From Candidatus Freyarchaeum deiterrae (lineage in GTDB: Archaea; Asgardarchaeota; Jordiarchaeia; Jordiarchaeales; Jordiarchaeaceae), in contig CP147778.1 of assembly GCA_037305845.1 (NCBI GenBank), positions 800,001 through 864,000 on the forward strand: a stretch of 64,000 nt of DNA, given 5' to 3'. A program made the position numbers and the translations under genes. Of the stretch, positions 1,760-11,668 are shown piece by piece. The first letter of the stretch is position 1, and every line of letters starts with the position of its first letter. The notes beneath the pieces are model-generated. The model had not been told where the DNA came from, did no database searches, and saw only the letters and a program-made list of their open reading frames with translations.

Positions 1760-2632
1760 TTGATTTTCTTCTTAAAAAGGTTGGATTTAGGGGAGATTAC
1801 TTTTATAATCGGATACAAAATTAGCTTAAGTGAAGATGGAGCAAATAACTCGAATGGTGATGACGACGTCTTGCTCATAATCTTTTGTGGTATACCGAGT
1901 GTTGGGAAGACCCTGGTCGCAAGAAGGCTGGCTGTGGAACTCGATAAACAAAATAATTCCACGTTTGTTATAGGTTCCGACGATATTCGCCGCCTTATCC
2001 CCACCCACGAGGAGCAGTTCGACCCGAAGCGTGAGTCCTTCATAAAAGAGACAACACTGCACATAGTAAACTACCTGCTCGCAAAGGGAAAAACTGTAAT
2101 CAGTGATGATACAAACTATTATAACGCCATGAGACGGGATCTCATAAAAATCGCTAAGAAGAACAAAGGAGAATACGCCATAGTATATCTTCACGCTCCT
2201 CTGGAATTTGCTCTAAAATGGAACAAGGAACGCGGGGAACCCATACCACCTGAAGTTATTCTCAAGATAAATGATAAGTTCGACGTCCCCGGTAAAAAGT
2301 ACAAATGGGACCAGCCAATCGTTTCCATAGATACATCCCAAGAACCATTAGAAGATGCTGTAAAAACCATTCTTCAAAAACTTGAAGATTTGAAGTCTCG
2401 AAAGAAAATTAAAATCAAGTCCTCAGATGAGTCGGGTAAATCGGAGGAGATTGATCATCTTACCCGCAGAATAATTGGAAAAATCATGGTTGAGAGAGGC
2501 GACAAGTCGCTGGCGCGACATTTGAGTTCTTTAAGAAAAAGTTTCGTGAAAGAAGCCGTCGAAAAAAATCTGAGTCCCGCTCAAGCAGAAAAAGAGTTTA
2601 CAAAGAGAATAAATAAAGAGTGTGGTGAATGA
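1760..2632 (+). CDS. pstK: L-seryl-tRNA(Sec) kinase (probable start TTG 1871)
   Basis: GIPSVGKT P-loop, [18 protein letters not shown] and YKWDQP motifs; near selB, sepSecS and tRNA-Sec. Confidence 0.9.
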
Positions 2633-3690
2633 TGAAAATCTCTGATTGGATACCTCGAGACGGAGATGCTATCCTCACAAAAGAGGGATTCATTTTTTAC
2701 ACTATAGGGTACGTTCATCCAGACGACAGGGTAATCGCTTTCATTAAATACATTCCCAAAGACCTTAAAGACCGTTTCGATGTTCCTTGGCTGCCCTACG
2801 AGTGGGTGTTAGAGGGCAACCCACTGGTACGGCCGGAGAAGCTCTACTCTCCCAAAATTTACAGTTCTTTCATATCGTCACTGAGAGAAATTATTCCCGA
2901 TGCGGTGTACTTTAATCCCTACGTTGGAAAAGAATTGGTCACCGTCCCTAAAGACCATATAAAAGCCGTTTATGTACCCAACGAAAGCTTACAATTCCTT
3001 CTAAGAAAAAAAGAACATGATGAACTTGAAAGAAAGGCAGTAGAAGTCATAGGTATGCTCTCCAAAGAGTCTGGAGTACCAGTAGAGGATTTTGGAATAC
3101 ATGGCTCCATTTCTCTTCAGATGCACAACTACCAGAGTGATATCGACATCGCGATTTATGGGTCAGAGAATTTCAGGAAGGTCAAGGAAGCATTTCACAG
3201 TCTGGCTACTAGGGGCGAGGTCTCAATTCTTGAAGCAGACGAATTCGACCCAATAAGGCAAAACAGAGGCGTATACCAGAGCAGCCGATTTGTGATTAAT
3301 GCCATCCGAAAAACAGAGGAGATAACTGAGAGGTTTGGCCAATACAAATACGAAGCTACAAAACCTGTGGAAGCCGTTTGCCTAGTGGTGAATAACAACG
3401 CGTCGATGTTCCGCCCCTCGGTCTACGAAGTTAATAATTGCAAGTCAAAACAAATAAAGAAAGTAGAAGAGCCCAAAAGTATTGTGAGTATGATTGGGCA
3501 ATTCCGTGACTTCGCAAGTGTAGGAGAGAAAATAAAAGTCAGAGGCATGCTTGAAAAAGAAGAGGAGTTAACTACTGGTAAAAAAGAGTATAGAATAGTC
3601 GTGGGATCAGGAAAAGGGGAAGAGTATCTCTGGCCCACAAACAAGTTACCTCCACCAGACTCTTTCAAAAAAATAAGTCAACCTATTTAG
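2629..3690 (+). CDS. COG1665-like predicted nucleotidyltransferase
   Basis: GYxHP N-terminal motif; FGIHGS...SDIDIAIYG pol-beta motif; C-terminal OB-like part; ATGA overlap with pstK. Confidence 0.75.
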
Positions 3691-3753: not shown

Positions 3754-4827
3754 ATGGTTCTAAAAGTAAGAGATAAGGACGCACCCATTTCACAAGAGGG
3801 TATAATCTTCAGGGTATACGGTTATGATCACCCACCAGACGCCTGCATATGCGATGTGGAGTACGCCCCCGAAACTATTTATCAAGCGCCGGAATCAAAA
3901 GCTGTTCGAACAGGCCTCCCCATAAAGTATTACAAGTTCTACGCTGACGGAGGTCTCAGATTCGTTCAGGAAAATTATCCCCAGTACCAGATTTTCTCGG
4001 AGCCTCTCCAACGCCTACTAGTAGGAATGAAAAAGAATCAGGTAGAAGAACTCAGAAAACCAGACAAGAAACTGGAAGAAATTCTAGTAAAGGAGCCCAA
4101 GGATAGTTTAATGAAATCCTTGAGGAAGGTTCTCGACCTTATTTTAGAACATTCGAAGCTTAAGCCCTCAGATTTCGGCGTCTTCGGCTCTCTCCTGCAC
4201 GGTTTTTACAACCCGGAATACAGTGATCTTGATTACATTATTTATGGCCGAGCGAAAGTAGCTGAACTTGTGGAGGTTCTAGGCGATTTTTATGGCGACC
4301 GAGTTGGGGTTCTTAAAAACGAGTTTGATTTTTTTGATGAGAGAGCGGAGCAAAAGAATTGGCGATTCGAAAACTACACACTCAAAGAATACGCATGGTA
4401 CGAGAAGAGAAAAGGTATCTACGCGGTTCACGACTCGAAGGAGCTAGGGAGAAGAGTAAAGATAGAGTTTGAACCAGTCAGAACATGGAACGAAATAAAA
4501 AACGAATACCAATCAGACACCCGAATAACGGGAGTTGGATGGACAAGGGCTAAAGCCATAATAAAAGACGACAAAGACTCCTACTTCATGCCAGCAATCT
4601 ACCCTATAGAAATCCTAGAATTCATCGAGGGAGACCGGGCGGACGACATAGAAAGAATAATAACATACGTCGAAGAATACAAAATGCAAGTCAGAAAAGA
4701 CGAAGAAGTCATAGTTGAAGGAATTCTGGAAAAAGTTCAGACACCCCAAAAAACATTCCACCAAATCACTCTTACCCACATTCCAGGAAAAAAATATTAC
4801 AAACAAGTAATAAAAATCGATGAGTGA
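3754..4827 (+). CDS. COG1665-like predicted nucleotidyltransferase, paralog 2
   Basis: GYDHP; FGVFGS...SDLDYIIYG; same architecture as the upstream gene. Confidence 0.75.
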   Translation: MVLKVRDKDAPISQEGIIFRVYGYDHPPDACICDVEYAPETIYQAPESKAVRTGLPIKYYKFYADGGLRFVQENYPQYQIFSEPLQRLLVGMKKNQVEELRKPDKKLEEILVKEPKDSLMKSLRKVLDLILEHSKLKPSDFGVFGSLLHGFYNPEYSDLDYIIYGRAKVAELVEVLGDFYGDRVGVLKNEFDFFDERAEQKNWRFENYTLKEYAWYEKRKGIYAVHDSKELGRRVKIEFEPVRTWNEIKNEYQSDTRITGVGWTRAKAIIKDDKDSYFMPAIYPIEILEFIEGDRADDIERIITYVEEYKMQVRKDEEVIVEGILEKVQTPQKTFHQITLTHIPGKKYYKQVIKIDE

Positions 4828-6633: not shown

Positions 6634-8031
6634 TTGTGCGTGCCTGATGCTATTCCGGTTAATATAGGTCTCATGGGCCACATTGACCACGGCAAAACAC
6701 AGGTAGCTAGAGTCTTAAGTGAAGTTGTTTCAACAGCAGGCCTGGATAAGCATCCGCAAGCTCAGGAGAGAGGAATCTCCATAGACCTAGGGTTCACATC
6801 CTTCCACTTAAACGGTTACCTGGTAACGCTGGTTGACGCCCCCGGCCACGCAGAACTCATCCGCAGTGTTGTGGCTGGAGCGAACATAATTGACGCCGCA
6901 ATACTGGTGATTGCAGCTGACGAAGGACCAAAAATTCAAACAGGCGAACACATTATTATCCTCCAGAGTTTCGGAATCTCAAAGGTAGTGGTGGCTTTGA
7001 ATAAGATGGATCTGGTATCCCAAAGCCAACTTGAGACTGTTAAGAATCAGGTTAAAAGTGTTCTTAAGGATACCATTCTGGAGGGGGCTCCCATAGTTCC
7101 AGTTTCCGCGGCTACCGGCGCAGGAATTGAGGATCTTAAAAGCGCTCTTTTGAGCATTCTGTCACCCCCAAAAAGGGAAATAGAAGGACCTTTCAAGATG
7201 CCTGTAGATCACGCTTTCCGCATCAAGGGAGCGGGAACAGTTATGACGGGAACAATTCATCGCGGTAGGGTTCATGTGGGCGATGAGATTGAGGTTATGC
7301 CCCTCAAACTGGCTGCAAAGGTGAGGTCAATACAAGTATTTAGGGAGTCGAGAGACGAAGCCCAAGCAGGGGATCGGGTAGGCATCGGTGTTACGGGACC
7401 GGAACCGGAGAGAATATATCGCGGGTGCTACGCTGGCACGCCTGGAACTTTGAAGGTAACCTACAAATTGATCGGAAGCATACAGATGAATAAATTGTTT
7501 AAATACTCTCTTCAAGCTGGTGTTAAAGTAAACTTAACAGTAGGGATGCCCACGGTCACTGCCACAGTGATTCCCTTCAAGAGATTCGAGGGAAAAAACC
7601 TTCTCACAGAAGAAGTGGAAAGTGGAGAAACCTTCGAAGCTCTTTTCAGACTTGATGAAAGCGTAGTTGCCGAAGAGAATACACCGTTACTGGTTTCACG
7701 TCTGGATTTGCCCCCCACAATCCTGAGAATCATGGGAAGTGGAAAAGTGACCGATACGGCTCCTGGTGGAATAGAATTCTTTACAGAAAAGACTAAGACG
7801 GGGAGGGTTAAAACGCCGGTTCACCCGAAGGGCAGCGTTATTGTTGGTTTGGCAGAAACAGGATATGGGGCAGAGAAACTATCAAACGAAACAGCAACCA
7901 CAGAAAACGGAACCCGGGGGAAAGTAGTTTCCGCTTTTGGAGGAAAGGGAGCGGTGATAGTTAAATTCGAAAAACCGGTTTCGGAGGGCGAAGCGGTTTT
8001 CATAAGAAAATATAAACCACGCAAAGTTTGA
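6634..8031 (+). CDS. selB: Selenocysteine-specific elongation factor (aSelB/eEFSec type)
   Basis: GHIDHGKT, ERGISIDLGF, DAPGH, NKMD; C-terminal GKVVSAFGGKG. Confidence 0.93.
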   Translation: MCVPDAIPVNIGLMGHIDHGKTQVARVLSEVVSTAGLDKHPQAQERGISIDLGFTSFHLNGYLVTLVDAPGHAELIRSVVAGANIIDAAILVIAADEGPKIQTGEHIIILQSFGISKVVVALNKMDLVSQSQLETVKNQVKSVLKDTILEGAPIVPVSAATGAGIEDLKSALLSILSPPKREIEGPFKMPVDHAFRIKGAGTVMTGTIHRGRVHVGDEIEVMPLKLAAKVRSIQVFRESRDEAQAGDRVGIGVTGPEPERIYRGCYAGTPGTLKVTYKLIGSIQMNKLFKYSLQAGVKVNLTVGMPTVTATVIPFKRFEGKNLLTEEVESGETFEALFRLDESVVAEENTPLLVSRLDLPPTILRIMGSGKVTDTAPGGIEFFTEKTKTGRVKTPVHPKGSVIVGLAETGYGAEKLSNETATTENGTRGKVVSAFGGKGAVIVKFEKPVSEGEAVFIRKYKPRKV

Positions 8032-8068: not shown

Positions 8069-9370
8069 ATGAAAGGGTTAATACCCGAAAATATGCTTGA
8101 AAGAGGAATCATTGTTCTGGAATCCCAACTAGACCCACTACGCATATTATTCGAACAGAGGAAAATTCCGGAAGAGGGATGGAGCGACCCTCAAATAAAA
8201 TTTCTACTCACCGTATTGTCTATGATGGATACAGATAAGGACACCCAAGCCGCTAGGGTAGGTGAGAGAGAAGCTAGAGTAGCCTCACCTCTAGTTTCCG
8301 AACTTGCTGCTGATTTCTGTCATGGTATAGGACGGAGCGGCGAGATATCTGCAGCACAGCCCAAAGCGCCTGGGGCCTCAATAATGTACAACATAGTAAA
8401 TACGCTCGCTTCCGACTCCGTCAGGAAATTCGGAGCCCCGAACCTAAAGCATGCTTTACTGCTTCCTCTGCCCACGGGAATGTCAATCGGTCTCACAATA
8501 TCAGCCATGAGACAGATGAGAAAAGCTAAGGGAAAATATGTTGTTTATCCTCGGATTGATCACAAATCTCCCCTGAAGGCCATAGAGCTCATAGGCTTGG
8601 AGCCGAAAATCATCGAAGGTGAACTGGAGGGTGATGCTGTTATTGTACCCCCGGAAAGGGTTGAGGAGGCGATTGACGAGGAAACGGTTGCAATTCTGTC
8701 CACAACCACATTCTTCCCTCCTCGTGAACCGGACGATGTGAAAGAGATTGCTAAAATCGCACAAGAGCACGACATTCCGCACGTAATTAACAACGCATAC
8801 GGAGTGCAGAGCAGGGAGATAATGAAAAGGATAAAATCAGCAATAGACGCTGGACGCGTGGACGCCGTTGTTCAGAGCACAGACAAAAACTTTCTTACCC
8901 CGATAGGAGGAGCAATTGTCGCCTCACCAAAACAGGAAACCCTAGACGAGATAAGCGAGCAATACGCGGGAAGAGCCACCGCGGCGCCAGCAACACAGTT
9001 CCTAGCAGCGATACTAGCGTTGGGTATCAAAAACTATGAAAAGCTCAGAAATGAACAAGAAGAAAACAGAGGATACCTTGAAGAGAATCTCAAAAAAATC
9101 GCAGGAGAATACGGGGAAAGAGTCCTCAACGTGTACAACCCCATAGCCTGCGCAGTGTCGCTTTCCAAAAGAGACCCACAAAAAGTCGGAGGAGCACTGT
9201 ACAACCTGAGAGTAACCGGACCAAGAGCGCTGGGGCCCACAGACTACGGTTCCTGCTGCAAAAAGTACCCCACAGCTTATATAACAATGAACGCGGCGAT
9301 AGGATCAAGACGTGAGGATATAGAAAAAGCGGTTCAAAAACTAGAAGAAACTCTCAAACAGGTCAGGTAA
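8069..9370 (+). CDS. spcS: O-phosphoseryl-tRNA(Sec) selenium transferase (SepSecS)
   Basis: RVGEREARV, HGIGRSG, QPKAPG, RIDHKS, INNAYG and VQSTDKNF (PLP Lys). Confidence 0.95.
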   Translation: MKGLIPENMLERGIIVLESQLDPLRILFEQRKIPEEGWSDPQIKFLLTVLSMMDTDKDTQAARVGEREARVASPLVSELAADFCHGIGRSGEISAAQPKAPGASIMYNIVNTLASDSVRKFGAPNLKHALLLPLPTGMSIGLTISAMRQMRKAKGKYVVYPRIDHKSPLKAIELIGLEPKIIEGELEGDAVIVPPERVEEAIDEETVAILSTTTFFPPREPDDVKEIAKIAQEHDIPHVINNAYGVQSREIMKRIKSAIDAGRVDAVVQSTDKNFLTPIGGAIVASPKQETLDEISEQYAGRATAAPATQFLAAILALGIKNYEKLRNEQEENRGYLEENLKKIAGEYGERVLNVYNPIACAVSLSKRDPQKVGGALYNLRVTGPRALGPTDYGSCCKKYPTAYITMNAAIGSRREDIEKAVQKLEETLKQVR

Positions 9371-9527: not shown

Positions 9528-10208
9528 TTGTTGAAGGGAGAGCATATGTTGCCTGCAAATGTTGACGAGTTAGTTAAGGGTTTGAGAGAAGCCTCGCGTG
9601 TTGTGAAGGCTGACGGAAAGCCTTTGGATCTTTTCAGGGTAGCGTATCACGCTGCTACTTCCTTAAGGTCTTATTGTGTGGATTTCTCTGAGAAGGGTGG
9701 TGAAGGTTCTTCCTACAGCGCCGGGGCTAGGCTTTACTCATCCGATGGTGGAGAGAAGGTTGTGAAGCAGATAAGAGTTGGAAGTGATGTCAAAGGAATA
9801 GAGCTGAAACTTTGGAGCCTAAGCAAAGAAAAATCAGACGCGAAAATCGAAGAAACCGCCAAAAAAATTCAGCAAATCCTATCCAGTGTAGGTAAACTAT
9901 CTGGTGAGAGTCTTCAGAACTTTTACAACGCCATGGTAATCGAAAGAAAGTTGGATATCTCATTAAACAAGCTTTTAACTGGTGCGACGAGTCAGCAGGT
10001 CTATTTCGATGTTGCTGACGCTAGGGAAAGAATTATTCTCTTAATGGGGCGTTTCGACCCCAGCATCATACAGATGGAAAGCGCGTTAGAAGAACTCAAG
10101 AAACTGGGTAAAGACGACCCGATCAAAAAAGAAATTGGTGAAAAAATAGCCTTATCGATTCTCAAGTGGAAAAAAGGAATTGATGAATACATTTCCCAAT
10201 TGAAGTAA
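9528..10208 (+). CDS. Hypothetical protein, helical C-terminal half
   Basis: 226-aa ORF with GGAG before ATG; no motif recognised. Confidence 0.6.
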   Translation: MLKGEHMLPANVDELVKGLREASRVVKADGKPLDLFRVAYHAATSLRSYCVDFSEKGGEGSSYSAGARLYSSDGGEKVVKQIRVGSDVKGIELKLWSLSKEKSDAKIEETAKKIQQILSSVGKLSGESLQNFYNAMVIERKLDISLNKLLTGATSQQVYFDVADARERIILLMGRFDPSIIQMESALEELKKLGKDDPIKKEIGEKIALSILKWKKGIDEYISQLK

Positions 10209-10383: not shown

Positions 10384-10536
10384 TGGCGGCGGACTGGGGG
10401 ATTTTCGCACTCTTACAGGTACTGGAGGAGTGCATCGAACCCCGAACCCTTACCGGGTTCCACGGATTTGAAGTCCGGGGCAAGGGATTGGGCGAGGCCT
10501 CGATTTTAGGCATCTCCACCCCTGCTACAGTCCGCC
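10384..10536 (-). tRNA. selC: tRNA-Sec (UCA) with two introns (10488-10515 in the D-loop; 10402-10433 in the T-loop); 93 nt mature
   Basis: 9-bp acceptor GGCGGACTG/CAGTCCGCC, G73 and encoded CCA; 7-bp D-stem; CTTCAAA anticodon loop; long variable arm GAACCC/GGGTTC; 4-bp T-stem GGGG/CCCC; BHB motifs at both introns. Confidence 0.95.
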
Positions 10537-10555: not shown

Positions 10556-10570
10556 TTTATAAAAAGTCGG
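10556..10570 (-). promoter_or_regulatory. TATA/BRE of the tRNA-Sec gene
   Basis: CCGACTTTTTATAAA about 20-35 nt upstream of the mature 5' end. Confidence 0.5.
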
Positions 10571-10672: not shown

Positions 10673-11668
10673 GTGGAGTGTGTTTTTTTGAGTCTTAAAA
10701 GTTTGGCTGAGTCTATTAAGAACTTTGATGGTGTTGTCAGAAAAAAGCCCATTATTGAGGTTACTCGTCCTCTGAGTCAAACTCTTGATTTTGCCAAGAT
10801 TGGCGTGGTAAAGTCGTTTGGTGAGGATTCCGCGGTTCTTGATTTGGGTGGTGAGGATTACCTCTTGGCTGCTACTGATGGAATCTGGCATAAGCTTTTA
10901 CTGGCGGCGCCGGAGTTTGCGGGTTACTGTTCTGTTCTGGTTAATGTGAATGATGTGGTGGTTAAGGGTGGAGAACCCATAGCGCTATTGGATACACTAA
11001 GCATCGAGGATATGGATATTGGTCAGAAAATTGTGGACGGTATTCTCTTGGGCTGCAAAAATTTCAGAGTTCCCGTGGTGGGAGGGCATCTTCACCCCTC
11101 CTCGCCCACTTATTCGCTTTCCGTAACAGTTTTGGGCCGTGCACCAAAGGATGCAGTTATTTACAGCGACACTGCGAAGCCCGGTGATGCCGTGATTGCC
11201 GCTGTGGATTTAGATGGCAGGGTGCATGAGGGATTTAACTATGCGTGGGACAGCACCTCGTGGAAAAGTCCAGAGTACGTTGAACAAAAGTTAAATACTA
11301 TGAAAGAGATTGCCAAGAAGCACTTGGCTACTGCAGCGAAGGATATCAGCAATCCGGGAGTCATCGGAACATTAGGCATGCTTCTTGAGGCCAGTCAGGT
11401 GGGTGGCAGAGTAGATGTTTCAAGTATACCAAAACCTTTGGATATGGATTTAGAAAAATGGGTTAAAATGTATCCAGGATTCGGAGTTATTATGACTTCC
11501 AAACCGAGTACGGCGTCAAGATGCCTCAAAATATTTCGAGGTGCAGACGTTTCGGCGGAAATAATAGGCGAAGTTGACGACTCGAAAAAGCTTTTAATTA
11601 CCGATGAGAGTGAGGTTTGTGAGGTTTTTAATTTCAAGCAGGATAGATTATCTGGAAAAATTTGGTGA
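10673..11668 (+). CDS. PurM/AIR-synthase-fold protein, methanogenesis marker 2 / COG2144 (selenophosphate synthetase-related)
   Basis: GEDSAVL, ATDGIW, VNVNDVVVKGG, GGHLHP, AWDST and KDISNPG motifs. Confidence 0.8.
   Translation: MECVFLSLKSLAESIKNFDGVVRKKPIIEVTRPLSQTLDFAKIGVVKSFGEDSAVLDLGGEDYLLAATDGIWHKLLLAAPEFAGYCSVLVNVNDVVVKGGEPIALLDTLSIEDMDIGQKIVDGILLGCKNFRVPVVGGHLHPSSPTYSLSVTVLGRAPKDAVIYSDTAKPGDAVIAAVDLDGRVHEGFNYAWDSTSWKSPEYVEQKLNTMKEIAKKHLATAAKDISNPGVIGTLGMLLEASQVGGRVDVSSIPKPLDMDLEKWVKMYPGFGVIMTSKPSTASRCLKIFRGADVSAEIIGEVDDSKKLLITDESEVCEVFNFKQDRLSGKIW

Follow-up and report, generated by a model that had tools for sequence, protein, structure and literature searches.

The window, a stretch of 64,000 nucleotides from Candidatus Freyarchaeum deiterrae (contig CP147778.1), very probably contains, on the minus strand at positions 10384–10536, a functional tRNA-Sec (selC) gene with two archaeal BHB-type introns, judging from its sequence, its predicted fold, and its relatives. 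In the standard tRNA numbering used in PMC3035459, one intron separates G19 from U20 in the D-loop and the other separates U59 from U60 in the T-loop. The gene itself, the occurrence of multi-intron tRNA-Sec genes in Asgard archaea, and the T-arm intron are already known; the published annotation of the gene lacks one of the two introns and the true 3′ end. The analysis corrects the structure and the 3′ end of the sole tRNA-Sec in a complete Asgard type genome and provides exact splice sites; it leaves the knowledge of tRNA splicing and Sec decoding unchanged.

Gene and Mature tRNA Structure

The 153-nt precursor, identified by sequence, fold, and HMM, consists of three exons and two introns, all on the minus strand. 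Exon 1 (10516–10536) carries the 5′ strands of the acceptor and of the D-stem, followed by the D-loop residues U, G18, and G19. Exon 2 (10434–10487) comprises U20, the D-stem 3′ strand, the anticodon arm with the anticodon TCA at 10469–10471, the variable arm (10444–10460), the T-stem 5′ strand, and the T-loop residues U54 to U59. Exon 3 (10384–10401) contains U60, the 3′ strands of the T-stem and of the acceptor (the latter at 10388–10396), G73, and an encoded CCA. When both inserts are removed, the 93-nt product adopts the 9/4 tRNA-Sec fold: the acceptor forms 9/9 pairs and is followed by G73 and CCA, the D-stem forms 7/7 pairs and closes a TGGT loop, the variable arm has a 6-bp stem, and the T-stem forms 4/4 pairs with the loop TTCGATT. 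The UCA anticodon is held in a 7-nt loop, CTTCAAA (10467–10473), above a 6-bp stem with one C.U mismatch (10478 and 10462, minus strand). This mismatch is fixed in every Freyarchaeum-type tRNA-Sec gene that we have seen, and a U-A pair is found there in Jordarchaeaceae. A TATA-like box, TTTATAAA (10556–10563, minus strand), located 20–27 nt upstream of the mature 5′ end, is a candidate promoter.

The initial annotation, made from the letters of the window, had proposed a 9/4 tRNA-Sec on the minus strand after removal of two inserts, and ARAGORN agrees, identifying the spliced 93-mer as tRNA-SeC(tca). The proposed coordinates, the insert lengths of 28 and 32 nt, the TGGT and TTCGATT loops, and the C.U mismatch all proved correct. 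The gene had also been expected to escape standard scanners, as it does: ARAGORN returned 0 hits for the unspliced tRNA-Sec in the raw window, and the unspliced gene reaches 27 bits against Rfam RF01852, whose cut-off is 47, in a cmscan alignment that ends at 10418.

Splicing Motifs and Intron Boundaries

The T-loop intron (intron 2; 32 nt; 10402–10433, minus strand), which had been presented as a textbook BHB cut after the second bulge base, was confirmed as a strict hBHBh′ motif. Its three helices, GGGG/CCCC, TTCG/CGAA, and CACTC/GAGTG, provide a 4-bp central helix and both outer helices, and its two 3-nt bulges would be cut as AT^G and AA^T. Shuffled versions of the insert form both a 4-bp helix and a 5-bp intron helix in 6e-5 of trials, and the BHB sits 3.4 kcal/mol above the minimum-energy fold (ViennaRNA). 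A cut placed one base earlier, giving the loop TTCGAAT, was rejected: it scores lower and is absent from the intron-free Asgard genes used as reference. An insert of the same 59/60 type was assigned by a rough parse to 16 of the other 37 host tRNAs. Within the intron, the stretch 10419–10429 (minus strand) matches the 3′ exon at 9/11 bases; this look-alike has no counterpart in relatives and may reflect chance or a recent local duplication.

The D-loop intron (intron 1; 28 nt; 10488–10515, minus strand) pairs GGGT (10518–10521) with GCCC (10490–10493), between bulges with predicted cuts GG^A and AA^T. The 4-bp central helix is complete, the 5′ bulge measures 3 nt, and the intron helix h′ forms 6/7 pairs; on the exon side, the AAT bulge is followed by one pair in Freyarchaeum and two in other families. 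Because of this single closing pair, we classify the motif as a relaxed HBh′ and not a full BHB; the helix, bulges, cut sites, and TGGT loop initially described for this insert stand, but the motif is only of the relaxed kind. Among shuffled inserts, the fraction with a 4-bp helix and 2 further bp is 4e-3. The intron GCCC imitates the 3′ strand of the D-stem, three inner pairs of which the HBh′ must displace to form. In ViennaRNA predictions, the HBh′ (−11 to −13 kcal/mol) lies 7–9 kcal/mol above the fold with an intact D-stem (−20.3 kcal/mol), and in each of the six genes folded, the D fold needed for splicing is in competition with the mature D-stem. In general, energy models penalize 3-nt bulges, and EndA binding stabilizes such a motif. 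Searching the host genome for a copy of either intron at another locus yielded none that was convincing, the best match being of 16–17 nt at C1:183864.

The boundaries could be examined independently of the motif with an HMM built only from 28 distinct intron-free Asgard tRNA-Sec genes, which were obtained by a phylum-wide RF01852 search and belong to other families. Both mature loops are the rule in these genes, TGGT and TTCGATT each being found in 27/28. The HMM score rises from 24.2 bits for the precursor to 31.7 and 34.1 for the two single-spliced forms and to 42.7 for the double-spliced form, which ARAGORN calls SeC. Ranked by this score among all trial deletions, the D cut comes 1st of 1120 and the T cut 1st of 1225, which upholds both of the boundaries originally proposed. 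The spliced D junction, TGG-TCCC, was absent from the JGI contigs and GTDB genomes scanned, an absence that says little, as short tRNAs are rarely assembled.

Conservation and Distribution in Asgard Archaea

Both inserts are present in three genomes of the same genus, in which the exons are identical at 91/93 positions, the D inserts at 15–18/28, and the T inserts at 18–19/33. An RF01852 search of five same-genus genomes returned no match, though these three hold a tRNA-Sec gene; in two drafts (G002 and G003, 97–99% complete), no match to a tRNA-Sec gene was found. Default scanners, here RF01852 on these five genomes, under-call selC in intron-rich Asgard lineages, and tRNA-based counts of Sec-using lineages can therefore be too low. 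Five more Freyarchaeum-type genes from metagenomes, one of them identical to a gene already in the set, have both inserts with complete central helices and T inserts of 22–34 nt.

All pairs of the D central helix are present in 11/11 genes of Freyarchaeaceae, Jordarchaeaceae, and Atabeyarchaeaceae (slid controls, 13–28/44 pairs), in which it varies from U-G to U-A and from G-C to G-U, and in 9/9 further metagenome genes; the T central helix retains 122/132 pairs across 33 genes, versus 34–76 when slid. Because related genes are not independent samples, these counts are to be read as patterns and not as P values. Two-sided changes were also observed in the intron helices, where G-C replaces A-T in the D insert and C-G replaces T-A in the T insert. 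The interiors of the introns are not conserved.

The initial annotation had suggested surveying Asgard selC loci for the D-loop intron. Among 84 Asgard tRNA-Sec genes, a nonrandom sample whose parse was corrected by eye, 27 have at least two inserts, and the 19/20 intron was confined to the three intron-rich families: Freyarchaeaceae (D-loop and T inserts; 4 genes), Jordarchaeaceae (D-loop, 37/38, and T inserts; 4 genes), and Atabeyarchaeaceae (D-loop, variable arm, and T inserts; 3 genes). Family f30 combines D-stem, 37/38, and T inserts (2 genes), and family f9, probably Lokiarchaeia, is mixed, including D-stem plus T inserts (10 genes) and 37/38 plus T inserts (4 genes). A T insert only is found in family f16 (3 genes) and no insert in families f7, f23, f29, and f33 (29 genes). 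The D-arm insert of f9 (L086–L112) and f30 is a different one, lying inside the D-stem 5′ strand, and its presence varies among close relatives; the f30 genes (L076–L077) have three inserts each.

Comparison with Published tRNA Genes

The same gene, in the same genome and at the same locus, is listed as Freyarchaeia tRNA 38 in Supplementary Data 4 of Valentin-Alvarado et al. 2024 (PMC11291895), with the coordinates 810415–810536, the type SeC, the anticodon TCA, and a Secmarker score of 35.5. That entry gives one intron without intron coordinates and a 3′ end that is 31 nt short, whereas we find two introns and an end at 810384. The same study reports introns in 92–95% of the tRNA genes of these genomes, and describes the tRNA-Sec of Atabeyarchaeia-1 and -2 as “SeC UCA, 3 introns by R2DT,” positions not being given in the paper. 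Upon examination, these two genes resemble that of Freyarchaeum in having introns at D-loop 19/20 and T-loop 59/60 and in the order SelB-SepSecS-Sel_Asgard-selC-marker 2, but differ in having an additional insert, located in the variable arm, and longer D-loop introns (37–39 nt). The T-arm intron mentioned in the initial annotation for Lokiarchaeal tRNA-Sec is indeed described by Mariotti et al. 2016 (PMC4989117): Lokiarchaeota tRNA-Sec (see also Santesmasses et al. 2017, PMC5330540) has a 31-nt T-loop intron and likewise a 9/4 fold, a 7-bp D-stem, and a 4-nt D-loop, but this intron is its single one and its D-loop is uninterrupted.

Goswami et al. (bioRxiv 10.64898/2026.10.13.758758) report that Freyrarchaeaceae average more than two intervening sequences per tRNA gene, that missed inserts are mostly in the D-arm while T-arm motifs are the strongest, and that some insert positions are common to Atabeyarchaeia; the main text of this preprint contains no discussion of tRNA-Sec structure. 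A known counterpart of the D-loop intron is that of Methanopyrus kandleri pre-tRNA-Glu, likewise a relaxed D-loop HBh′ in a multi-intron tRNA and removed by a CSL-type EndA (PMC5829648, PMC3241643); it differs in lying at 20b/21 of a canonical tRNA and not at 19/20 of the 4-nt tRNA-Sec loop. In the part of the literature covered, we found no report naming a 19/20 intron position in tRNA-Sec. A precursor combining one strict and one relaxed motif would be a handy substrate for tests of Asgard EndA.

Selenocysteine and Splicing Machinery of the Host

The host genome is assembled into a single contig of 3,576,204 bases, and its tRNA coordinates agree with those of the Freyarchaeia genome in Valentin-Alvarado et al. 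2024. Close to the tRNA gene, the plus strand of the window encodes a PSTK-like kinase (1760–2632), the genome's best match to TIGR03574 (216 bits, below the curated cut-off), and SelB/EF-Sec (6634–8031; TIGR00475), SepSecS (8069–9370; TIGR03531), and a putative selenocysteine system protein, Sel_Asgard (9528–10208; NF045535), these three scoring over their cut-offs. The SelD gene lies outside the window and has an in-frame UGA in an HG-U-SCK motif; the cell therefore needs a tRNA-Sec, for which 10384–10536 is the only candidate. RF01852 and HMM searches of the host genome revealed no second selC. The “tRNA-SeC” reported by ARAGORN genome-wide at C1:1698331 was rejected as a second selC, as it is a tRNA-Val(TAC), and the other RF01852 and HMM matches are weak and fall on other tRNAs or noise. 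As to selD itself (L071:1470–1545; genome C1 about 2457930–2458010), no in-frame ATG precedes the UGA, and translation appears to begin at a CTG preceded by the ribosome-binding site GGAGGTG.

For splicing, the host encodes RtcB and two EndA subunits, i.e., an enzyme of the (αβ)2 type. The α subunit (best PDB match 3p1z, E-value 8e-43) has the Tyr/His/Lys catalytic triad and a CSL loop with the equivalent of Lys44 in Aeropyrum EndA, and the β subunit lacks the His. The CSL loop confers cutting of relaxed, noncanonical introns (PMC3241643, PMC5829648), and with its loop, Lys44 equivalent, and β subunit, the host EndA is of the type that cuts such motifs.

Proposed Maturation and Alternative Interpretations

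Transcription of the minus strand from the TATA-like box would yield the 153-nt precursor, in which the T-loop intron would present a strict BHB and the D-loop intron a relaxed HBh′. Motif anatomy and established EndA chemistry suggest that the (αβ)2 EndA cleaves each 3-nt bulge behind its second base; ligation of the exons would then fall to RtcB. Because the intron GCCC displaces inner D-stem pairs, a broad-specificity EndA with a CSL/L1 loop would be needed, and the host has one. The elbow cannot form in the precursor, as the T central helix occupies U54 to G57 and the D-loop intron keeps G19 apart from U20. After both cuts, the D- and T-loops would be free to form G18-U55 and the U20-G19-C56 elbow; SerRS, PSTK, and SepSecS could then charge the tRNA, leaving its delivery to SelB. 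In a lineage in which nearly all tRNAs are interrupted, the introns themselves are most likely tolerated passengers, selected only to stay spliceable.

The initial annotation had added that recognition of the D-arm by PSTK and SepSecS awaits splicing. In the PSTK structure, Arg199 lies on U20 and U59 and C56, G19, and U20 form a triple (PMC3035459); the same paper describes the D-arm contact as secondary in the archaeal enzyme, which retains 40% activity without its C-terminal domain. The proposal finds support in the contacts to U20 and U59, which are beside the junctions, but is weakened by the secondary nature of the D-arm contact and by the fact that splicing before charging is true of every intron-containing tRNA. 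Dependence of PSTK on splicing is thus plausible, as a generic property.

Other readings of the locus have to be weighed against a doubly spliced, functional gene. The published form, a 122-nt gene (10415–10536) with one intron, agrees with the listing in Supplementary Data 4 and with cmscan, which likewise stops at 10418. Both of these ends fall inside the T-loop intron because the insert holds the 3′-exon look-alike, which is missing in relatives, all of which keep the distal exon; moreover, with this 3′ end the acceptor can form no more than 6/9 pairs and GCCA is missing, versus 9/9 pairs and G73-CCA for an end at 10384. The one-intron form has next to no chance of being right and is already refuted at the sequence level. 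A decayed pseudogene with insertions might be suspected from the low Rfam score of 27 bits and the mismatched C.U pair of the anticodon stem, yet all Freyarchaeum-type genes share this mismatch, the exons are nearly invariant genus-wide while the inserts have diverged, and the gene adjoins a full set of Sec machinery in a genome with a UGA-containing selD and no other selC; we regard decay as extremely improbable. It is very unlikely, though the predicted energies speak for it, that only the T-loop intron is removed efficiently and that the D-loop insert is kept on an intact 7-bp D-stem, or removed in another register. The most stable predicted fold does stack the insert on the D-stem (−20.3 vs. 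−11 to −13 kcal/mol), the UGG/CCA pairs of this fold are also conserved, and archaeal PSTK depends mainly on the acceptor stem (PMC3035459). However, intron positions −6 and −5, specific to the HBh′, are conserved and show the U-G to U-A variation, the insert length ranges from 16 to 39 nt, which is hardly tolerable for a structural part of a mature tRNA, a kept insert would break the G19-C56-U20 elbow, and a CSL-type EndA excises a D-loop HBh′ intron in vitro (PMC5829648).

Removal of both introns is also compatible with a further role, in which the hard-to-fold D-loop intron is rate-limiting and regulates the supply of Sec-tRNA. The 19/20 intron would then owe its shared position in Freyarchaeaceae, Jordarchaeaceae, and Atabeyarchaeaceae to a role as splicing checkpoint, a slow, controllable step gating selenoprotein synthesis at the elbow bases read by PSTK. 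The support for such a checkpoint is the competition of the splice-competent D fold with the mature D-stem in 6/6 folded genes; the junctions also lie beside U20 and U59, both of them PSTK contacts (PMC3035459), and the position is kept in three families. On the other hand, an intron is absent from many Asgard tRNA-Sec genes or lies elsewhere in them, the intron interiors are not conserved, and, as 92–95% of host tRNAs are interrupted, there is nothing Sec-specific in the arrangement. We consider regulation of this kind very unlikely, and the passenger status of the introns remains our preferred interpretation.

Neighboring Genes

Several features of the surrounding genes deserve mention. Sel_Asgard (NF045535), which sits between SepSecS and selC, shows 24–86% identity in related Sec clusters and had no match in Pfam. 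On the other side, a plus-strand gene of the methanogenesis marker 2 family (10673–11668; TIGR03267), AIR-synthase-like and divergent from the tRNA, has an AIR-synthase/SelD fold and adjoins tRNA-Sec in Freyarchaeaceae, Jordarchaeaceae, and Atabeyarchaeaceae loci (L130–L155). The order SelB-SepSecS-Sel_Asgard-selC-marker 2 is common to two classes described as nonsister, and this neighborhood may reflect a connection with selenium metabolism or transfer of the cluster. Directly 3′ of PSTK, two ORFs of similar size (2629–3690 and 3754–4827, plus strand) both contain a GS...D.D-like motif, the second with a weak nucleotidyltransferase match (PF01909).
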